IMG/VR virus record: IMGVR_UViG_2706796752_000001
Location: 94,101-158,100 of that record
DNA: 64,000 bases
Strand: one strand, 5' to 3'
DNA from: a virus
Lineage: Duplodnaviria; Caudoviricetes
Part shown: one piece after another, positions 2,173 through 57,386 of the stretch
How the letters are laid out: every line of letters starts with the position of its first letter
Numbering within the stretch: the first letter of the stretch is position 1
Notes under the pieces: generated by a model
What the model was told of the DNA's origin: nothing
What the model saw: the letters and a program-made list of their open reading frames with translations, nothing else
Database searches by the model: none
Made by a program: the position numbers and the translations under genes

Positions 2173-3393
2173 ATGACAAACACATTAACTAAACAAGAGG
2201 CACAGGAAAAGTTACAGGAGCGCATCGAGGCGAACCTAGCAGAAGGCGGAGATTACGGATTCGGTAAAGTTGCTGCATTCCGTAAATCGAAAGAAATCGT
2301 ATCTGCAATTAAGGAGAACAACACAGTTGTTGCAGGACCAACAAAAGCGTTCGTAGAAGAGATTGCATCTCTAGCATTTAACGGTAAGGTTGATGAAGAG
2401 CAGCTACAAGACATCATTAACGAGGAGTTCGCTAAATATGAAGTGCAATAACAAGTATTGTTGCTTCCAAGCATTCGATAGTTGTTGTCATGAGAGTGAG
2501 GAGGGGTTCGATAATGCAACCCCTAACCAGCTCGATTGTCCGTCTTCGGTACGAGAAGATTTAGAGAACGAGTTATATGAATATGCAACGTATCTACAAG
2601 ACCATTTCGACGACTTGAAGCCTAGATATCAAGCGCATATGACGAGATTCATCTTAGAGCAAAGACACAGTAAGACGAAAATAGATATCTTGCTAGATAC
2701 ATTCTCTCGTAAAACAAACTTTAATATGTCGACACAAATGCGAACATTATCCGAGTTAGTTGAAATTAAGAAGCAAATGGATAAGCTGGAGGAGAATATT
2801 TAATGCTTAGGTCATTAGACACGCAGTACGTAACTATTGTGATAACAAACGATAAAGGGAAAAACAGAGTTGGCACCTACACATTAGAAAACTTACTTCA
2901 TACAACAGAAGAAGAGTTAGTCGAGGAGCTAACACAATGTGATTGCCAACCAGTAGGGGAGAGTTACCATGTTGAATGCAATTGCGAAGATGAGTGGGAA
3001 GATTTCAAACTTAGCGTCGAACTCTAATGACTTCACAGTCAGTATAGGAGAGTATGTAATCGTTAGTTCTTCTAAGGAAGGTCAGAACGCGCTAGTAGCA
3101 TTAACGATGAGTGCGAAGGTAGAGATGATTAAGGTTAACGACTGTACAGTAGGGAATCTAGAGAAGATGATTAAAGTAGCGAAAGACACATTAGTTAATC
3201 ATCTAGTAAAAGAGAAAGAGAGTTTATATCGATGAACACTTATTCTGTATCTTACGTAACAGCTGATAACAAACGACGATATGCTAGTTTGGATGCGAAG
3301 AACCTAGCAATGCTAGAACAGATTATCCATCGTATCCAATATACAAAACAAGATATGATTATCACGTCAATCGTGCTAACTGGAATGAGATAG
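2173..3393 (+). CDS. Five small hypothetical proteins (2173-2451, ~2438-2803, 2803-3027, 2969-3235, 3232-3393)
   Basis: Coupled ORFs with RBS; 3232-3393 (53 aa) read manually. Confidence 0.6.
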
Positions 3394-7074: not shown

Positions 7075-9186
7075 ATGAAAATAATGTTTGCGCTAGACCA
7101 CATCCGCGAAGAGCACTTCAAACAGAAGCGCGGAACAAACGAACTAGAGTTTAACTATCACAACACTGAAGCAGGGAAAACACTAGCAGCTCTGGTAGGT
7201 AAGAAAGGTTTAAACCTTAAACAAGACCAATGGTATATCGATTACGCGTTTAAACGGGTCCCTAAGGTCCGTACACGTAATAGAAATAAGAAAGCAGTAT
7301 CATACGTACCAGTAACGCAGAAAGAAGCAAACCCGTTATATGAAGAGTTCTCAGCTCGTGTTATTAAAGACAAACCAGATGTTATTGTTCCGATGGGTAA
7401 TATGTCGTGTAAGGCTACAATAGGAAAGTCAGAGATTTCTAAACTTCGGGGTGTGCCTAGACGAGAGATTATCACATCTAAATTAACAGATGAAACACAT
7501 GAGTGTTGGATTCTTCCTACTTATTCTATGGAGTATTTACTGTTCCAGCCTAAGATTACTAACTTAGTAGTGGCAGATATGGGTATCTTAAAGAAATATG
7601 TAGAGGACGGTTACTCCGCGTTTATGCCTAAGAAAGTAGAATACGAGGACGTTACCACAATTGCACGTGTACGTGAGATATTTACGAAAGAGATTGTTAA
7701 CGCTCCTGTAGTTGCATGGGATTTAGAGACTAATACACTAAGTGCAGAGAAAGTAGGAGCTAAACCTTTATGTATTAGTTTATCGTGGCGTGAGGGACAA
7801 GGTGTCACCATCCCATTGCAGCATAAGTGTTTCACTTGGAATCTAGGAGAGTTAGCTGAGATTTATAAATTCGTAGAAGAGTTCGTAGGCTCCAAGCAGA
7901 TTAAAGTCGGACATAATATTAAGTTCGATATTCGCTTCCTTCGTTTAACTAGAAACATCACTGTGTTTAATAATAACCGAGATACACAGGTTATGTACTG
8001 GCTACTAGTCAACCAAGAAGTAAAAGACTCTTTACGACTATCAGACCTAACATATGAATTTACAGATATGGGTGGATATGATAGAGAGCTAGAAGACTTC
8101 AAGGAGAACTTTAAGAAGAATGCACTTGCAGAAGACAAGAAGCGTATCGACAAACTTAAAGATGAATGGAAAGAGCAATGTACACTTGACCGTGCAGAAG
8201 CTAACGCACAGATTAAAGAGTTAAAAGAAATAGTAAAAGTACTCAAGAAACAGAATACAGCTTACAAGAAAGATATGGGTACAAAAGAGGACAACCCGAC
8301 CATCATGGAGCAGATTGGCGAGCTTCTGTTAAAGCAGCAGGATTTAAAATATGTTAAGCCTAAGATGCCTGATTTCGGCACACCGCAGAGTCCACGTAAT
8401 GAAATTGATGGTAGTGACTTTAACTATGAATGGATTCCTTTCTTTGAGATGCTAAGTCCATACGCAGCAGGTGACGTTGATGTGTGTTTACGTATCTACA
8501 ACGCGCTAGATAAACGAGCACACGATGAAGGGTTAACGAAGAAGATTGACCTATACTCGAATCACTACGTAGAACTAACTAACGTATTAGCTAAATTAGA
8601 GGCTACTGGCGTCCAGCTAGACATCCCTTACGTGAAACATATGGCTGAGATATACATCGCAGAAGAACAGCGCTTAATCGAGCTTATACGCACATATAAA
8701 ACGTCGAAGGATGTTGAAGCTTACAAAGAAGAGTTGTACCAGATGGGTGTAGAGGAGTTCGCTAAGCCAAAAGCAGAACGTGACCCAGAAACTGAGAAGT
8801 TGCGAACTAAACTTATGGACCCAGAGAAACGAAAGTTTAATCCAGCATCCTCAGATGACAAACAACGTGCATGGTACCTTATCAATGGGGTACAGCTACC
8901 ATTTAACCGAGAGTACCTTACAGATACGGCTCTAAATAACAACATCACAGAGCATGAAGCAGAATGGTATCACTTTAAAGCAGATAAGACAGCGTTCGAG
9001 TACATTAAGGACAACTATCCAGAGCATAAAGAACTTGCAGAGATTTACCTAGAGTACTCTTTAGTTAAAACTCGTAAACAATCATTCACTTACAAGTTCT
9101 TAGAAATGGTAGATGCGGATGGACGATTACACGGACGATTTAACCCAACAGGTACAGCAACATCACGTTTAAGCTCGGCTGGTCCT
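7075..9186 (+). CDS. DNA polymerase family A, exon 1 (UDG-like N-terminal domain, 3'-5' exonuclease, start of polymerase domain)
   Basis: WDLETN (ExoI), GHNIKFD (ExoII), YAAGD (ExoIII), GTATSRLSSAGP ending exactly at the 5' splice site; 704 codons. Confidence 0.93.
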
Positions 9187-9425
9187 AAACAGGTTGGGAC
9201 CAGAATAATCAACTCCGTGAATTGCTGGAAACCCCTAACGTAAAGCCGAGGGCAATCAGCCGCCAAGGCACACAGGAATGTGTGCAAGGTTCAGAGACTA
9301 GGGTATGGAGTCCAGAACGGACGGTAAAACCCCACGAGCGCGGAGCACCACAAGGTGAAGATATAGTCCAAACTATATGGAAACATGTAGAGGTGAGGAT
9401 AAAGAGCCTCATGTTAATACAAAAG
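9187..9425 (+). mobile_element. Group I self-splicing intron (IA-type), 239 nt, no homing endonuclease ORF
   Basis: P1 GGUCCU|..GGGACC with U-G at the splice site; P AAUUGCUGGAAA 9220, Q AAUCAGC 9254, R GUUCAGAGACUA 9289, S AAGAUAUAGUCC 9358; terminal G9425. Removal joins SSAGP to NLQNLP in frame. Confidence 0.95.
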
Positions 9426-49929: not shown

Positions 49930-51908
49930 GTGACAAGGGCGTACATAGTTGATAGTAACATTAGTTTCTTTGTAAGGCGCGTATACAGTTACGGCGATGT
50001 GTTCACACATAATAACAAAGAATATCAAGTGCTATACATAACAGGTGATACAATGTTCATTGCGTGCGTATCACATACACATCAAGGTAAAATAAAAAGA
50101 GTTTCAAAAAGTGTTGTACAAGTTAAATATGTATGATACAATGAGGGCAGTTAAGAAAAACAAAAAAAAAGGTGGTAGTTGAAAATGAGATTTACAGATA
50201 GTTTAACAGTGGTAAACGAGGCGGCAGAAAGAAAATTAGTTGTTAGAGAGGCATTGAGTCAAGTTGAGTTATTAGTGGAAATTACAGATTTATATGACCG
50301 TGGTTTAACAGCTATCTATTTAAACGTTGATGAGGTTAAAAGCCTTGTAAACTCTATGCACAAACATTTCCGTCGTGATAAGTTCATCTATAAAAGTGAG
50401 CGCTCTTTATACTTCAAATATATGTCAGAGACAGAGCGAACAACAGTCGAGCTAAACATGTTTGTAATCCGTATTAGTGAACTGGATTTACAAAAGACCT
50501 GCTTACTATTTGAAAAGTGGTTAACACATCACGGTATTGAGTTTGAAGGTATGGACACAACAAAGGAAAAGCTCACACTTAAGATTGATGAATGTAAGAA
50601 AGATTTACAGTTCTTTACTAATGAAAAAGTTAGCATTATTTCAAGTATGACAAGCGTGACAAATAACACTGTTTTAGATGTGCTGGTGTGTGATTTAAAG
50701 GAAGCAAACCGCAATATTGAGAGATTAGAAAAAACTTTACAGGATTGTATTGACAGACTGTCACAATTTTAGTAAACTAGGGTTAACTTAATAAGGAGGT
50801 AGTTGCAAATGACTAAAGAGCCTACGTTATACAAAGGTGGGACAAGCATTAAGAGCCAACACCGCGCGGTACGTAAATTTAACAATAGCAATAGTAACGA
50901 AATGTTAAAGGCGTTGCGCAAAAGTAAGAAGGTGAAAAAGTAATGGATTGGAAATCATTAGATGATAAAACCTTTGTCATGAAGGTAAAGGAGTTCGTTA
51001 AGGGGTTTAACACCCCTCGAACTTCTATGAAAGAGGTCATAGAGTTTAACGAAACGTTAGACATTATAGAAAGCGAATATGATAGACGTTTCTATCTTGA
51101 TTTCTATGAATCATACTATGAGTTACTGGACATTGAAAACTAAATATTAGGAGGTCGTTATATATGACAACACCAGAAACCTTACAAGAACAACGCGAGG
51201 AGCTACAGGACAAGCTAGAATTATTGTGGGATGCGTTCGACTATTCGTCGAGCCCGTCGGAGCGTGAAGAACTTAAAACAGAGATTCGCGGTATTAAGGC
51301 GCAAATTGATAAGCTTAATAAAACGCTAGACATGTTACAAGATAACATTAATGAGGATGCTTGGTACAGTTCTAGTGATGCGAGATTATACGAAACGGGG
51401 TTAACACAAGATGACTTCCTTCAATAGTAAAGAGTTACTTACATTACATGGGGCATTACATGAGCTTATACACTATGGATTCTTTGACGTATTTTCAACT
51501 AGTAAGCTTAGTTCATATCAATTAAAAGATGTGTTAGATATAATGGGAATCAAGTACACGTCTGATATTGGCAGTGTTAACGGGTACAAGTATATAAGAA
51601 TTAAAATAAAGTAGAAATTGGGGGTTGCAACCCCCTTACATACATGATACAATGATTACAGGTTAAGAAATGCAAATAATTTAATAAGGTGGTAGTTGAA
51701 TATGTATATTCGTAGTGAAGTGAAAACAATGTCAGAAACTCAATTAATGTTAGCTTTTCATAGAATTAGCTGTGAAATGGTTAAAGATGAAATGAGCGGT
51801 AAAGGTGTTAAGCAAAAGACACAACGCGCTCTAGGATACATTATTAGTGAATTGGTAGGGCGTTATGATTTAAATGAAAATGAATTAATCGACGGTATTT
51901 GGCAATAA
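49930..51908 (+). CDS. Early-region hypothetical proteins (49930-50136, 50179-50772, 50809-50943, 50943-51143, 51164-51427, 51411-51614, 51696-51908)
   Basis: Downstream of repeat promoters and RBS. Confidence 0.65.
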
Positions 51909-51978
51909 ACGTTTGCATTCTAAAAGTGGACATGCTATAATAATTACAGGTTAACAAAACAACTAAAAAGGTAGGTAG

Positions 51979-52266
51979 ATGAAAATGAAGAAAACTCCAG
52001 ATTACAAATATTATGTTACTATGATTGATACTTTCATGAGCGGGTGGGGCGAAGCTAAAGACCGTAAAAACAAACTAGCTTTCGAATGTGAATCTTATGA
52101 GGAAGCGCAAATTGTAGCAGGTAACGGGACAGGTCGCGAGGAAATGAAATACATTTACATTTGCTCTAATAGACCTAAACAAAAGAAAGGTGAATTACTT
52201 CAATTCAAAACTAAAGAGGAAATGGGCGCTTTCTATGTACCTAATAAATGGGGTGCGCCTTGGTAA
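51979..52266 (+). CDS. Early hypothetical protein directly upstream of the pistol ribozyme
   Basis: Own promoter (51913); YVTMIDTFMSGWG motif. Confidence 0.75.
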   Translation: MKMKKTPDYKYYVTMIDTFMSGWGEAKDRKNKLAFECESYEEAQIVAGNGTGREEMKYIYICSNRPKQKKGELLQFKTKEEMGAFYVPNKWGAPW

Positions 52267-52268
52267 GA

Positions 52269-52341
52269 ACTGTCTGGACAGTGACGAAAGTCAAAGGGCA
52301 TTAAGTCCAGAGCGTCCCGCCTAATAAGGGTGGGGGTTGCC
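52269..52341 (+). ncRNA. Pistol self-cleaving ribozyme
   Basis: P1 ACUG/CAGU with loop UCUGGA; AAA linker; P2 GGCA/UGCC; UUAAG; 6-bp pseudoknot UCCAGA; invariant GCG; P3 UCCCGCCU/GGGUGGGG; G52336-U52337 cleavage dinucleotide. Every pistol consensus element is present, in order. Confidence 0.9.
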
Positions 52342-52435
52342 AATAAAAAAAAGTGTTGACACTTTTCGACGGCATGTGATACAATGTTTATAGGTTAGGA
52401 AATACAAATAAAAAATTATAAGGTGGTAGTTACAT

Positions 52436-53416
52436 ATGACAAACGTAAATGAATTAAAAGCAGTTGAGGAAAAAGAAGTAATTCAAATTGAAAGCAAGGA
52501 GTTTAATTTCCCATTATATGATGGTTACAACGAAGAATTATGTGATAGTGAAGGGAACCGCGTTACTCGACAAGCGTTATCGTTTATTGTAGAGGACAAG
52601 CAATCCGGCGACCTTGACAGAGTTATTAGTGACATGGTTGACCGTTATAGCAGTGATAGCACTCATGATATCTGGACAATTATAAGAGATGCGCGCGACG
52701 CGTTCCAAGATGCAATAAGTGAAGGAATGATTGTCGTTAATCCGGAGGACATGAATGACACAATGTTAAACGCTTATCTGTATCTTTTGGACAGTGAGTT
52801 ACAAGCGAATAGAAGTGAGATTCTATATAACTACATTGTATACCGTGTTAATAAAATGTTAGTGGACAAGCATGTAACACAAATGGACATCGAAGGTCTA
52901 GAGCAGGAAATTGAGAATTATGCAGACGAGGCAGAAAATAGTTATAGTGAGTTCGATTACATGGATGATGAAATGTTTTCTCAGTTGGAAGAATTCATTG
53001 ATTCATATATGGCAGGTCTTGAAATGGGACAACCTCTTGATAATCAAGATTGGGAAAATATCGGTGATGTAACTATCACAGAGGGCGCAATGTTTATTAA
53101 GAAAGACGAAGACACAGACAATAGTTATTATGTGGAACGTGTATCTGGTAACGAATTTGAATCATTCTATTTAGATAGTATGTATATTGATTTAAACGAT
53201 GGTTGGATTAACTGGTATGATATCAACGAGTATGCAGGAATTAGCATGGACGCGGAACCATATGAAAGAATTAGCGCTTTAATAGGATATGACGGTATTG
53301 AAAACTTTAATCCTTCGACAACAGAGTGTGAAAAGGCTGTAGACTTATGTGCAGCACTTAGAAACGCTGGTGTAAATGTGGTATGGAGCACGGAGCACGA
53401 AGAAATACAATTCTAA
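52436..53416 (+). CDS. Very acidic early protein (DNA-mimic / anti-restriction candidate)
   Basis: D/E-rich 326 aa; sole gene of its cassette. Confidence 0.6.
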   Translation: MTNVNELKAVEEKEVIQIESKEFNFPLYDGYNEELCDSEGNRVTRQALSFIVEDKQSGDLDRVISDMVDRYSSDSTHDIWTIIRDARDAFQDAISEGMIVVNPEDMNDTMLNAYLYLLDSELQANRSEILYNYIVYRVNKMLVDKHVTQMDIEGLEQEIENYADEAENSYSEFDYMDDEMFSQLEEFIDSYMAGLEMGQPLDNQDWENIGDVTITEGAMFIKKDEDTDNSYYVERVSGNEFESFYLDSMYIDLNDGWINWYDINEYAGISMDAEPYERISALIGYDGIENFNPSTTECEKAVDLCAALRNAGVNVVWSTEHEEIQF

Positions 53417-54452: not shown

Positions 54453-57386
54453 TGCAAGTTAAGTTAAGACAGAACAACATTACACAGGTTATGGAAGACA
54501 TTAAGGAAGCTCATGAGGACGTTATGAGCGGAGCAATGAGGAAAGTACAGTGTGTACAATTGATTGCGGATTGCAGAGATGTCAAAATGATTCTAGTAAA
54601 TGAATTATGGGAAGAAATGTACAGGGGGTTCGATTATAATGCTTAATGTTAACGACTTTCAATTTGTAATTATTAGTAATGATACACAAGCGGTTTTCGG
54701 TTTGGATGTAGGGGAACAAAAGGAAGGCGCGATATTAATGTATGACCTTAACGTGTACCTTTTAGCAGGTCTGGAGAACGGGGAATATGTTGATAGATTC
54801 AATTACTCTAATAGAGCCGAGGACGAGGCAAGGGCGGCGTATATGGTTTGGTTTGCGTGGTCTAATAGTCTACGTGAAGAACTAGAGTTAAAAGGCTTCT
54901 CAATGGCTAGTAACAAGGTTACAACGAAAGTGCAATGTTTAATAGAGGAAGCACAGGAGGAGTTAAACAAATGAGCATGCGAGGTAGTTTAAAAATTGTT
55001 GTGTGTATCGGGTTTATGGGTGGAGTTATTTGGGGAATGGCACAATTCTTAGAAATTATGAATTAATTTAAAATAGGGGTTGAAACCCCCTTACATACAT
55101 GGTACAATGATTACAGGTTAACAAATACATATAAAAAAGGATGGTAGTTACATATGAATAAAACAATTAGTATGGTTGATGTAGTGGCAGAGGTTCAAGA
55201 GGTTAAGGGCTGGGAAGTTAGCAACGTTCACCCAACTTATATGAACATTACTAATGAAAAAGGTCACAGTCTGTATGTTCAAATTAATTCGTTAACGAAA
55301 GATATTGTTATTGCAGCTCGACATAATGAACGTATAACGGAGACAGTAACGGCTATAGGAAATAATCGTCCTATAATGGATGTTATCGCGGCGATGGTTG
55401 ACACGTTTGATGCTATCGAAGAAATTAAAAGTAAAGGTATAAACTGGGTTTGTTACGTTCGTAAAATTAAGATAGATGATTTGTAAAATAAAGTGTTGAC
55501 AGTTTCAAAGGTTACATGATACAATGATTACAGGTTAAGAAAACAACAAATTAATAGGAGGTAGTTACATATGACTACAGACAGAATTCAAAAAGGTGAA
55601 GAACTGGTTATCATCAATACAACCATGTTTAACAAGAAATACAAGGCGGTACACATGGAAACAGTTGTTGTGACTGACATTACAAGCATTGATGAGGGTG
55701 TTGTCGAATGTAAGTATTCTGGTTATAATTTTGCTGGTGATTTAACAGAAACGCTTGTCTTACCACTAGTAATCCTTAAGCGTAAAAATCAATTGGACGA
55801 TGATGAGTATGACATGTACTTAGAAGTTAATAAGAATAAACTATTTTCTTCTAAATCCACTGAGATTGCTCATATAATCATCAAAGAGTACAAAGAATAT
55901 GGACATGTTCATAATAGCCGTATAAGTGAACTATGCAACACTATTGCAGGGCTTTACGAGTTCGATAAACATAATTTTATGTCTCTGGTTTTATCACAAG
56001 TAATCACAATCACAAAAACTATGAAAGAGGGAAAATAATATGTATACATTAAACGATGAGTTAATCAAAGGTCAAGTATGGTTTGAGGACGCTGTAGAAA
56101 TGTTAAATGAAGGAATCGCGGTAACTGTTGAGGTTAATGGTTACGATTATGAAATTGACCTAGCTGCAAACTATATAGGTGGTGACCACTTACCAGATGA
56201 TGAATTTATTAGCGAAGTACTAGGGAACGTACATTACAACGGTGCTGAGAATGTTATTTTTAAAACAGTAGATTACCTACTTAATGGACATAGTATAGAA
56301 GATATTAATGTAACGTTTTAATAAATAGGGGCTTGTCAGCCCCTTGCGTATATGATACAATGATTACAGGTTAAGAAAACAAATACAAATTAAAGGATGG
56401 TAGATGAATATGACAAACGTAATTAGAAGACAATGGGACACTTTAGGATTTGCGGGTAAAAACTACGTGACAAACGAAGATGAAACGATGGTGTATGTGT
56501 TAGAATCTTACAGTCAGTTAGACATGAGTCAAGGGTTTGGACTTAATGTATCAATGGAACTAATTGCAGGATGGGAATATATTGACATTGACTATAGTGA
56601 CCGTCAAGGGTGGGCGTCTAAAGAGTCATTTGTAAACGAGACGCACAATGAAGACTTCACATTCTATCCGATGGTTGAAACATTAAAAGAGGCAATAGAG
56701 GAAGCTGGATTTAAACTATTATCTACATTCGATGAAAGCCGTATAGTTAAGGTTTTGGGTGGAGAAGATGAATAACGGCGACAGCCTTACAAATGGTGAC
56801 GGCTGGGAATATTCAAGCGAAAACTTTGACCGTAATACACTCATCGTTAGATGGTGGGTGTATTGGTCGGGGTGGATAGATGAGCAATTCCCAGAACATG
56901 ACCCTATTGAATTCTTGAAAGTACCAGTTAAATATAAATGTTGGGGTAAAGGGGTGCAGGACAATGACAGGAACGTTGTTATGTTTAAATACTGAGACAA
57001 GCCTTTTCATGGGTGAAGGCTTACCAACTGGAGCTATTACCGAGATGTATGGAACGGCTCTGGATTATGCGGCACAGTATGCAGGGTTTTACGGGTCAAT
57101 ACAAGACGTTGTTTACAACGGTGATAGTTTACTATCTTATGATTATTGTGATGCTGAGGTTAGGGTTTTAGCCGCGTACAGCGGTGTAGGCACTTCTAAG
57201 ATTATAGCAGATGAACAGGAGCATTTAAACAGCTATCTAGAGTGGTTGACAAAAGAAACATTATGGTGTAACATGGTATACGGCGCTAATCCTAGCGAAC
57301 TAGCAAAAACGTTTAGAGATTTAGAGTTTGAAAGTTTGGTAGAAATGTTAGGTACAACAAACTATTATAAAGGGTGGTCGTTATAA
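54452..57386 (+). CDS. Early hypothetical proteins (54452-54646, ~54639-54974, 55154-55486, 55571-56038, 56040-56321, 56404-56775, 56759-56995, ~57009-57386)
   Basis: Cassettes behind repeat promoters. Confidence 0.6.

Follow-up and report, generated by a model that had tools for sequence, protein, structure and literature searches.

The sequence window analyzed here, a stretch of 64,000 nucleotides, spans bases 94101-158100 of a 158,100-bp virus record and forms the right end of that genome. The nearest relatives are Wphvirus phages (Herelleviridae, Bastillevirinae) of Bacillus thuringiensis, B. cereus and B. anthracis, with 86-97% identity around the locus described below. The early region consists of a series of small plus-strand genes, and each gene or short block carries a near-identical sigma-A-type promoter and leader. 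Between two of these cassettes lies an element with the layout of a pistol self-cleaving ribozyme. The window also contains a match to a group I intron at 9177-9390 on the plus strand (75.7 bits, E 2e-17). The genes and signals surrounding the pistol-like element are:

51912..51941, + strand: putative promoter-like site of the upstream cassette (TTTGCA, 18 nt, TATAAT, TG; 10/12 in a consensus scan)
51979..52266, + strand: early gene of 95 aa, phrog_5423 (ORF list; PHROG E 9e-60); the pistol-like element starts 2 nt past its stop
52264-66, + strand: stop codon TAA of the upstream gene (sequence)
52269..52341, + strand: pistol-like element, 73 bases
52342..52355, + strand: A-tract between the element and the next promoter, lacking a U-tract (sequence)
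52356..52385, + strand: strong sigma-A-type promoter-like site of the next cassette (TTGACA, 18 nt, TACAAT, TG; 11/12 matches)
52436..53416, + strand: downstream gene of 326 aa, phrog_3460 (ORF list, PHROG)

The 95-aa upstream protein has no Pfam family and no informative Atlas neighbor, and its PHROG is without known function. The downstream gene encodes a very acidic protein (pI 4.05, 23% D+E, 6% K+R), which carries the annotation 'Ocr-like protein' in phage MrBubbles. A DNA-mimic anti-restriction function is possible for the 326-aa protein, as a lead only.

No terminator-like site was found between the upstream gene and the next promoter, and the A-tract at 52342..52355 is not an intrinsic terminator because a U-tract is absent. 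Canonical terminator-like sites are rare in this part of the genome, with only one on the plus strand between 47 and 58 kb. The promoter at 52356 belongs to a family of repeated early promoters, and the other hairpin-less members are preceded by the same A-rich stretch and then GTG. Four early promoters have their -35 element in a GC-rich hairpin, three of them clean and one imperfect. These hairpins (51620-51635, 55075-55090, 56327-56344 and about 53450) lie just after the previous gene and present the -35 as their loop. An earlier note, made from the letters of the window, had proposed that the ribozyme sits where other cassettes have a hairpin. This describes the four promoters correctly, but hairpin and ribozyme are both absent from the junctions at 50115, 51912, 53924 and 55496, and the idea that the ribozyme is a general substitute for the GC hairpins was rejected for this reason.

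Anatomy and class assignment of the element

The element contains all parts of a pistol ribozyme, a class for which Weinberg 2015 is reportedly one of the source papers. Its parts, read from the sequence, are:

52269..52282, + strand: P1 hairpin, 4 bp, ACUG (52269-72) paired with CAGU (52279-82) (sequence, Rfam alignment)
52273-78, + strand: P1 loop UCUGGA, 6 nt, which is the 5' strand of the pseudoknot (sequence)
52283..52292, + strand: extra hairpin GAC-GAAA-GUC, 3 bp with a GAAA loop, inserted into the P1-P2 linker (all folds; Wphvirus-specific)
52293..52296, + strand: A-rich linker AAAG before P2 (AAA 52293-95, G 52296) (sequence)
52297..52300, + strand: P2 5' strand GGCA, paired with 52338-41 (sequence, Rfam alignment)
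52301..52305, + strand: conserved UUAAG junction, identical to the Rfam consensus
52306..52311, + strand: pseudoknot 3' strand UCCAGA, 6/6 Watson-Crick pairs with the P1 loop
52312..52314, + strand: conserved GCG core, invariant in all sequences aligned
52315..52335, + strand: P3 hairpin, 8 pairs (3 G-U) between 52315-22 and 52328-35, with a 5-nt loop (sequence, folds)
52336..52337, + strand: P3-P2 junction G52336/U52337, 2 nt, with the predicted cleavage site between them (aligned to the Rfam GU junction)
52338..52341, + strand: P2 3' strand UGCC (sequence, Rfam alignment)

The P2 and P3 helices occur in the canonical order, with P2 enclosing P3. The junction between P3 and the P2 3' strand is exactly 2 nt long, as the pistol class demands. 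Both the purine-G of UUAAG and the GCG core match the Rfam consensus and are unvarying in 17 aligned pistols. We take A52304 and G52305 as the counterparts of A32 and G33 in the env25 pistol, and the GCG at 52312-14 presumably represents its G40, C41 and G42. A review discusses the roles of A32 and G33, with the core purine and the G of GCG as key residues, proposes G40 as the general base and cites the env25 crystal structures 5K7C and 5KTJ (PMC6154101). Pistols cleave at the P3-P2 junction by 2'-OH attack, which yields a 2',3'-cyclic phosphate and a 5'-OH; the length of this junction is strictly conserved, while the identity of its two nucleotides varies among active pistols (PMC4604425, Harris 2015).

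The Rfam Pistol model (RF02679) aligns end to end with the element (52268-52341) and scores 33.1 bits, which is 1.4 bits short of the gathering threshold of 34.5 bits, a database convention rather than a property of the RNA. E-values are 1e-4 within a 221-nt stretch, 0.03 when the whole window is compared with all 4227 families, and 1.7e-5 for Pistol alone across the 158-kb genome, where the model finds this single match. Copies from nine sister phages score 29.7-36.4 bits. Three pass the cut-off (MrBubbles 36.4, Zuko 35.2 and Megatron 35.1 bits) and the other six lie at 29.7-33.9. Posterior probabilities in the Rfam alignment are low at the linker, where the alignment is uncertain. We also made a loose descriptor for this analysis (core motif, 6/6 pseudoknot pairs, P1, P3, a 2-nt junction and P2), which matches once in the window and in 1/300 dinucleotide-preserving shuffles. 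Judged by its sequence, the resemblance to a pistol exceeds chance.

The other family considered was RAGATH-12 (RF03149), whose match covers 52261-52300 only and is not significant (14.4 bits, E 1.4, against a gathering score of 75 bits). It was rejected, and five related phage genomes held no better match. The RAGATH-12 match shares with the 5' half of the pistol a 12-nt stretch over P1 and its loop, as well as the hairpin loop.

The most unusual feature is the hairpin at 52283-92. In about 20 distinct canonical pistols that we parsed, the linker is 2-9 nt long and mostly reads (A)U-AAA-N-AG, whereas it is 14-15 nt in the Wphvirus copies, and the window copy carries a 10-nt insert with AAA 1 nt from P2. 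None of the parsed canonical pistols has the hairpin. It is predicted in every fold, its stem is invariant in the sister phages and its loop varies (GAAA, GAAAA or AAAA), a pattern that fits a hairpin. The invariant stem gives no covariation among the sisters, so the hairpin is probable rather than proven. Since the stem directly abuts the P1 3' strand, it could stack on P1, and the hairpin is probably a lineage-specific decoration that does so. The insert accounts for most of the 20-40 bits by which the score falls short of the canonical copies. The changed linker, with its 10-nt insert and displaced AAA, could reduce activity.

We consider it very probable that the element is a member of the pistol class, and likely, at a lower level of confidence, that it is an active self-cleaver. 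The earlier note had described a complete pistol with cleavage between G52336 and U52337, and both the reading of the sequence and the Rfam alignment place every part and the scissile step where the note had put them, to the base. Its suspicion that the extra hairpin is out of the ordinary is borne out by the parsed pistols. The covariance model matches end to end, with a score slightly below the cut-off.

Conservation in Wphvirus and synteny beyond the genus

The element is kept in 40/40 phage records that match the flanking DNA, with 90.6-100% identity. Across ten aligned phages, the mean identity between pairs is 98.5% for the core (52269-52318), 84% for the upstream CDS, 74% for the downstream leader and 58% for the start of the next CDS. 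The difference is larger still in the BPS13 clade, where the ribozyme is 97.6% identical and the upstream protein 65%. Variation among the sister phages is found mostly in the P3 loop and the distal P3 pairs. One of these pairs, 52319:52331, covaries and appears as G-U, A-U or G-C in the sisters, including a double change. Single deviations at other positions are a U at 52336 in Zuko and a G for A52293 in Crookii (an unverified record), which turns the AAA of the linker into GAA.

The record of Bacillus phage BCPG1 places a 29-aa 'hypothetical protein' (BCPG1_165) across the ribozyme, at 1474-1563 of its locus, which is probably a spurious gene call. The window has an ORF akin to it (44 aa, 52190-52324).

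Orthologs of the upstream gene occur in other phages, with 46-50% identity to the 95-aa protein. Chotacabras, LBC2, SWEP1, LY2 and a complete IMG/VR phage of 154.5 kb carry a canonical pistol that begins 1-6 nt after the stop codon of the ortholog. Chotacabras, LBC2 and SWEP1 are recorded as Bequatrovirus and LY2 as Bastillevirinae without a genus. Three of these syntenic pistols were scored and reach 57.9, 60.8 and 74.2 bits. In both syntenic genomes that were searched whole, of which Chotacabras is the one from the Bequatrovirus-type group, the pistol is a single copy. The gene downstream of the pistol differs in each lineage. In C30-1, the ortholog and the pistol are separated by an unrelated gene that has its own promoter. 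The IMG/VR phage L051 shows no promoter ahead of the gene that follows its pistol, which places that pistol inside an operon. Sundance and Kirov, two more distant phages, have no pistol in their genomes and instead have a terminator-like hairpin after the ortholog. Orthologs of the gene at 51979 thus carry a ribozyme at the same position, a point that the earlier note had wanted checked, in Wphvirus, in the Bequatrovirus-type phages and in an IMG/VR phage.

We compared 11 elements, namely ten that directly follow the ortholog and the C30-1 copy, which comes one gene later. Standard pairs make up 100% of the P1 and pseudoknot positions in these elements, with compensatory changes in P1. The pseudoknot occurs in six different sequences, every one fully complementary. 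The Rfam model leaves the pseudoknot unscored, so this covariation does not derive from it. Pairs were counted by a script, which mis-parsed the 3' end of the LY2 copy; its counts were used because MAFFT misaligned the P3 halves.

These data bear on the suspicion that the likeness to the pistol motif arose by chance, to which the score below the gathering threshold would lend some weight. The genome-wide E-value and the shuffled sequences argue against it, and canonical pistols at the same site in orthologous loci, together with the covariation, practically refute it. We regard a chance likeness as negligibly probable.

The idea that phrog_5423 is a general ribozyme-associated gene was rejected, as the gene adjoins a pistol only in L051 among 40 diverse IMG/VR loci. 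The link between gene and pistol is specific to this phage lineage, since 40 other phrog_5423 loci from diverse viruses have no adjoining ribozyme. A 131-kb IMG/VR phage with a phrog_5423 homolog (L106) carries two canonical pistols (2233-2305 and 2965-3035) ~0.5 and 1.2 kb downstream. Further IMG/VR contigs were fetched by the pseudoknot pattern (L017, L024, L032 and L030), and some of them have two or three pistols close together or in tandem. L032 also has a near-threshold type II hammerhead, and the pistol of L030 is situated within a tRNA array.

Possible roles at the gene boundary

From the observed anatomy, conservation and synteny we infer cleavage, a fate for both of its products and a benefit to the phage. 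In the explanation that we favor, which we hold to be somewhat better than even, the element is a genuine pistol transcribed as the 3' untranslated end of the phrog_5423 gene, and self-cleavage would set the 3' end of the message and sever read-through RNA. Transcripts from the promoter at 51912 would run through the ribozyme. P1 would form, its loop would pair with the P2-P3 junction to give the 6-bp pseudoknot, and P2 and P3 would assemble. The 2'-OH of G52336 could then attack the phosphate before U52337, so that the RNA is cut after G52336. The upstream message would keep nearly the whole folded ribozyme and end in a 2',3'-cyclic phosphate, whereas read-through RNA into the next cassette would begin with a 5'-OH and may be a substrate of RNase J1 in Bacillus. 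In place of a terminator, the folded ribozyme would give the upstream gene a 3' end that is both defined and structured, and the next gene would rely on its own promoter at 52356.

Several observations point to this role at the 3' end. The element follows the gene across lineages, terminator-like hairpins replace it in two phages, and there is no terminator here. The proposed fate of the read-through RNA is modeled on the glmS ribozyme: in B. subtilis, RNase J1 breaks down its 5'-OH product (PMC11780869). In Firmicutes, pistols often lie close to phage genes (PMC4604425). In a literature search, we found no transcriptome of Wphvirus or Bastillevirinae phages. Since the downstream gene differs from lineage to lineage and the ribozyme keeps its place behind the upstream one, it resembles a 3' element of the upstream gene more than an insulator of a particular gene pair. 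Junctions with neither a terminator nor a ribozyme (e.g. 51912, 53924 and 55496) speak against a simple insulator, and insulation is clearly not needed everywhere. For a role as 3'-end former or insulator, taken by itself, we see about even chances.

The same cut might also serve as a substitute for a terminator by a torpedo route. RNase J1 can dislodge a stalled polymerase (PMC8501993). If the ribozyme were to cut co-transcriptionally, RNase J1 could load on the 5'-OH, degrade the RNA up to the polymerase and dislodge it. If this were true, no intrinsic terminator would be needed to end the gene, and the strong promoter 15 nt downstream would escape occlusion; the Wphvirus hairpin could tune the speed of folding and so make cleavage co-transcriptional. 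We consider this route doubtful.

An active ribozyme could also serve another purpose. Cleavage may adjust the dose or lifetime of the message by removing a stabilizing sequence downstream, it may act in timing, or the 5'-OH leader may alter how read-through copies of the downstream gene are translated or how they decay. Anatomy and conservation would be the same as in the favored explanation, bacterial ribozymes in 3' UTRs and polycistronic RNAs have suggested roles only (PMC6765202), and the L051 pistol inside an operon, with no promoter visible before the next gene, would suit such a purpose. In five lineages, however, the element lies 1-6 nt from the stop codon of the same upstream gene and the downstream gene is unrelated, which argues against a role tied to the latter. 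We judge another purpose to be unlikely, though the most credible of the alternatives to the 3'-end explanation.

Cleavage itself may have been lost. The element would then be a pistol-derived RNA, inactive through its changed linker, that persists because it structures the 3' end, protects it as a pseudoknot or binds a protein. The linker is unlike that of all canonical pistols parsed, the score is 20-40 bits below theirs, Zuko has a U where the attacking 2'-OH is supplied, and Crookii has GAA for AAA. The two junction nucleotides nevertheless vary in identity in active pistols (PMC4604425), and the catalytic-core nucleotides and the junction length are kept at 98.5% identity, which a mere hairpin would not need. 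We rate this possibility as quite improbable. Less probable still is that a mobile or selfish element carrying ribozymes left it behind as a neutral remnant without present use. Ribozymes do cluster with mobile phage DNA, and the viral contigs with two or three tandem pistols would agree with such an origin. Against it, the element is a single copy that two genera keep at one position, its core varies far less than the flanks and shows compensatory changes, and loss was found in 0/40 Wphvirus records. A neutral leftover is thus a very unlikely explanation, and the 3'-end role remains the one that we prefer.

Significance and relation to known systems

For pistols, as for most self-cleaving ribozymes of bacteria and phages, only suggested biological roles are available (PMC6765202). 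Most known pistols occur in arrays or in uncultured phages, settings that make the effect of one copy difficult to separate. The element described here is a single copy at a fixed place in more than 40 sequenced, culturable phages of B. thuringiensis and B. cereus, which makes it a handy system for pistol function. Natural comparisons are available between canonical and hairpin-bearing pistols (two genera), with terminator-like hairpins (two phages) and with a U at the nucleophile position (one phage). The case also matters for annotation, as the element lies just below the Rfam threshold and a 'hypothetical protein' was called over the ribozyme in one record.

Ribozymes at the boundaries of phage genes have been on record since 2011, when prophage hammerheads were described that flank single genes or short blocks and were proposed to process long transcripts into gene-length messages; in one case they flank the anti-restriction gene ardA (Perreault 2011, PMC3088659). 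The window shares with them a self-cleaving ribozyme at a phage gene boundary, and its next gene encodes a very acidic protein with an Ocr-like annotation in one phage. It differs from them in that the ribozyme is of the pistol class and single rather than arrayed, and in that the flanking genes have their own promoters and do not form a plain polycistronic operon. The glmS ribozyme of Bacillus likewise leaves a downstream fragment with a 5'-OH after self-cleavage, as the window pistol is expected to do. glmS is a metabolite-dependent switch in the 5' UTR of a cellular gene, whereas no ligand or switch is suggested for the window pistol.

The closest comparison is with the pistol class itself (RF02679). 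The window copy shares with it the P1 with a 6-nt loop, the 6-bp pseudoknot, P2, P3, UUAAG and GCG, the GU junction and the occurrence in a Firmicutes phage. It differs in the 10-nt linker hairpin, in the AAA that lies 1 nt from P2 and in its 33 bits compared with 55-74 for canonical copies. The Bequatrovirus-type pistols (Chotacabras, LBC2, SWEP1 and LY2) have in common with it the position 1-6 nt after the stop codon of the ortholog and the A-rich stretch and promoter that follow. They are without the linker hairpin, have other P1, pseudoknot, P2 and P3 sequences, and precede unrelated genes. In the literature searched on pistols and Bacillus phages, we found no earlier description of the window pistol. 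The pistol class is known, and three things are modestly new: the linker hairpin, the one site behind the same gene that two genera conserve, and culturable phages in which its role can be addressed directly.
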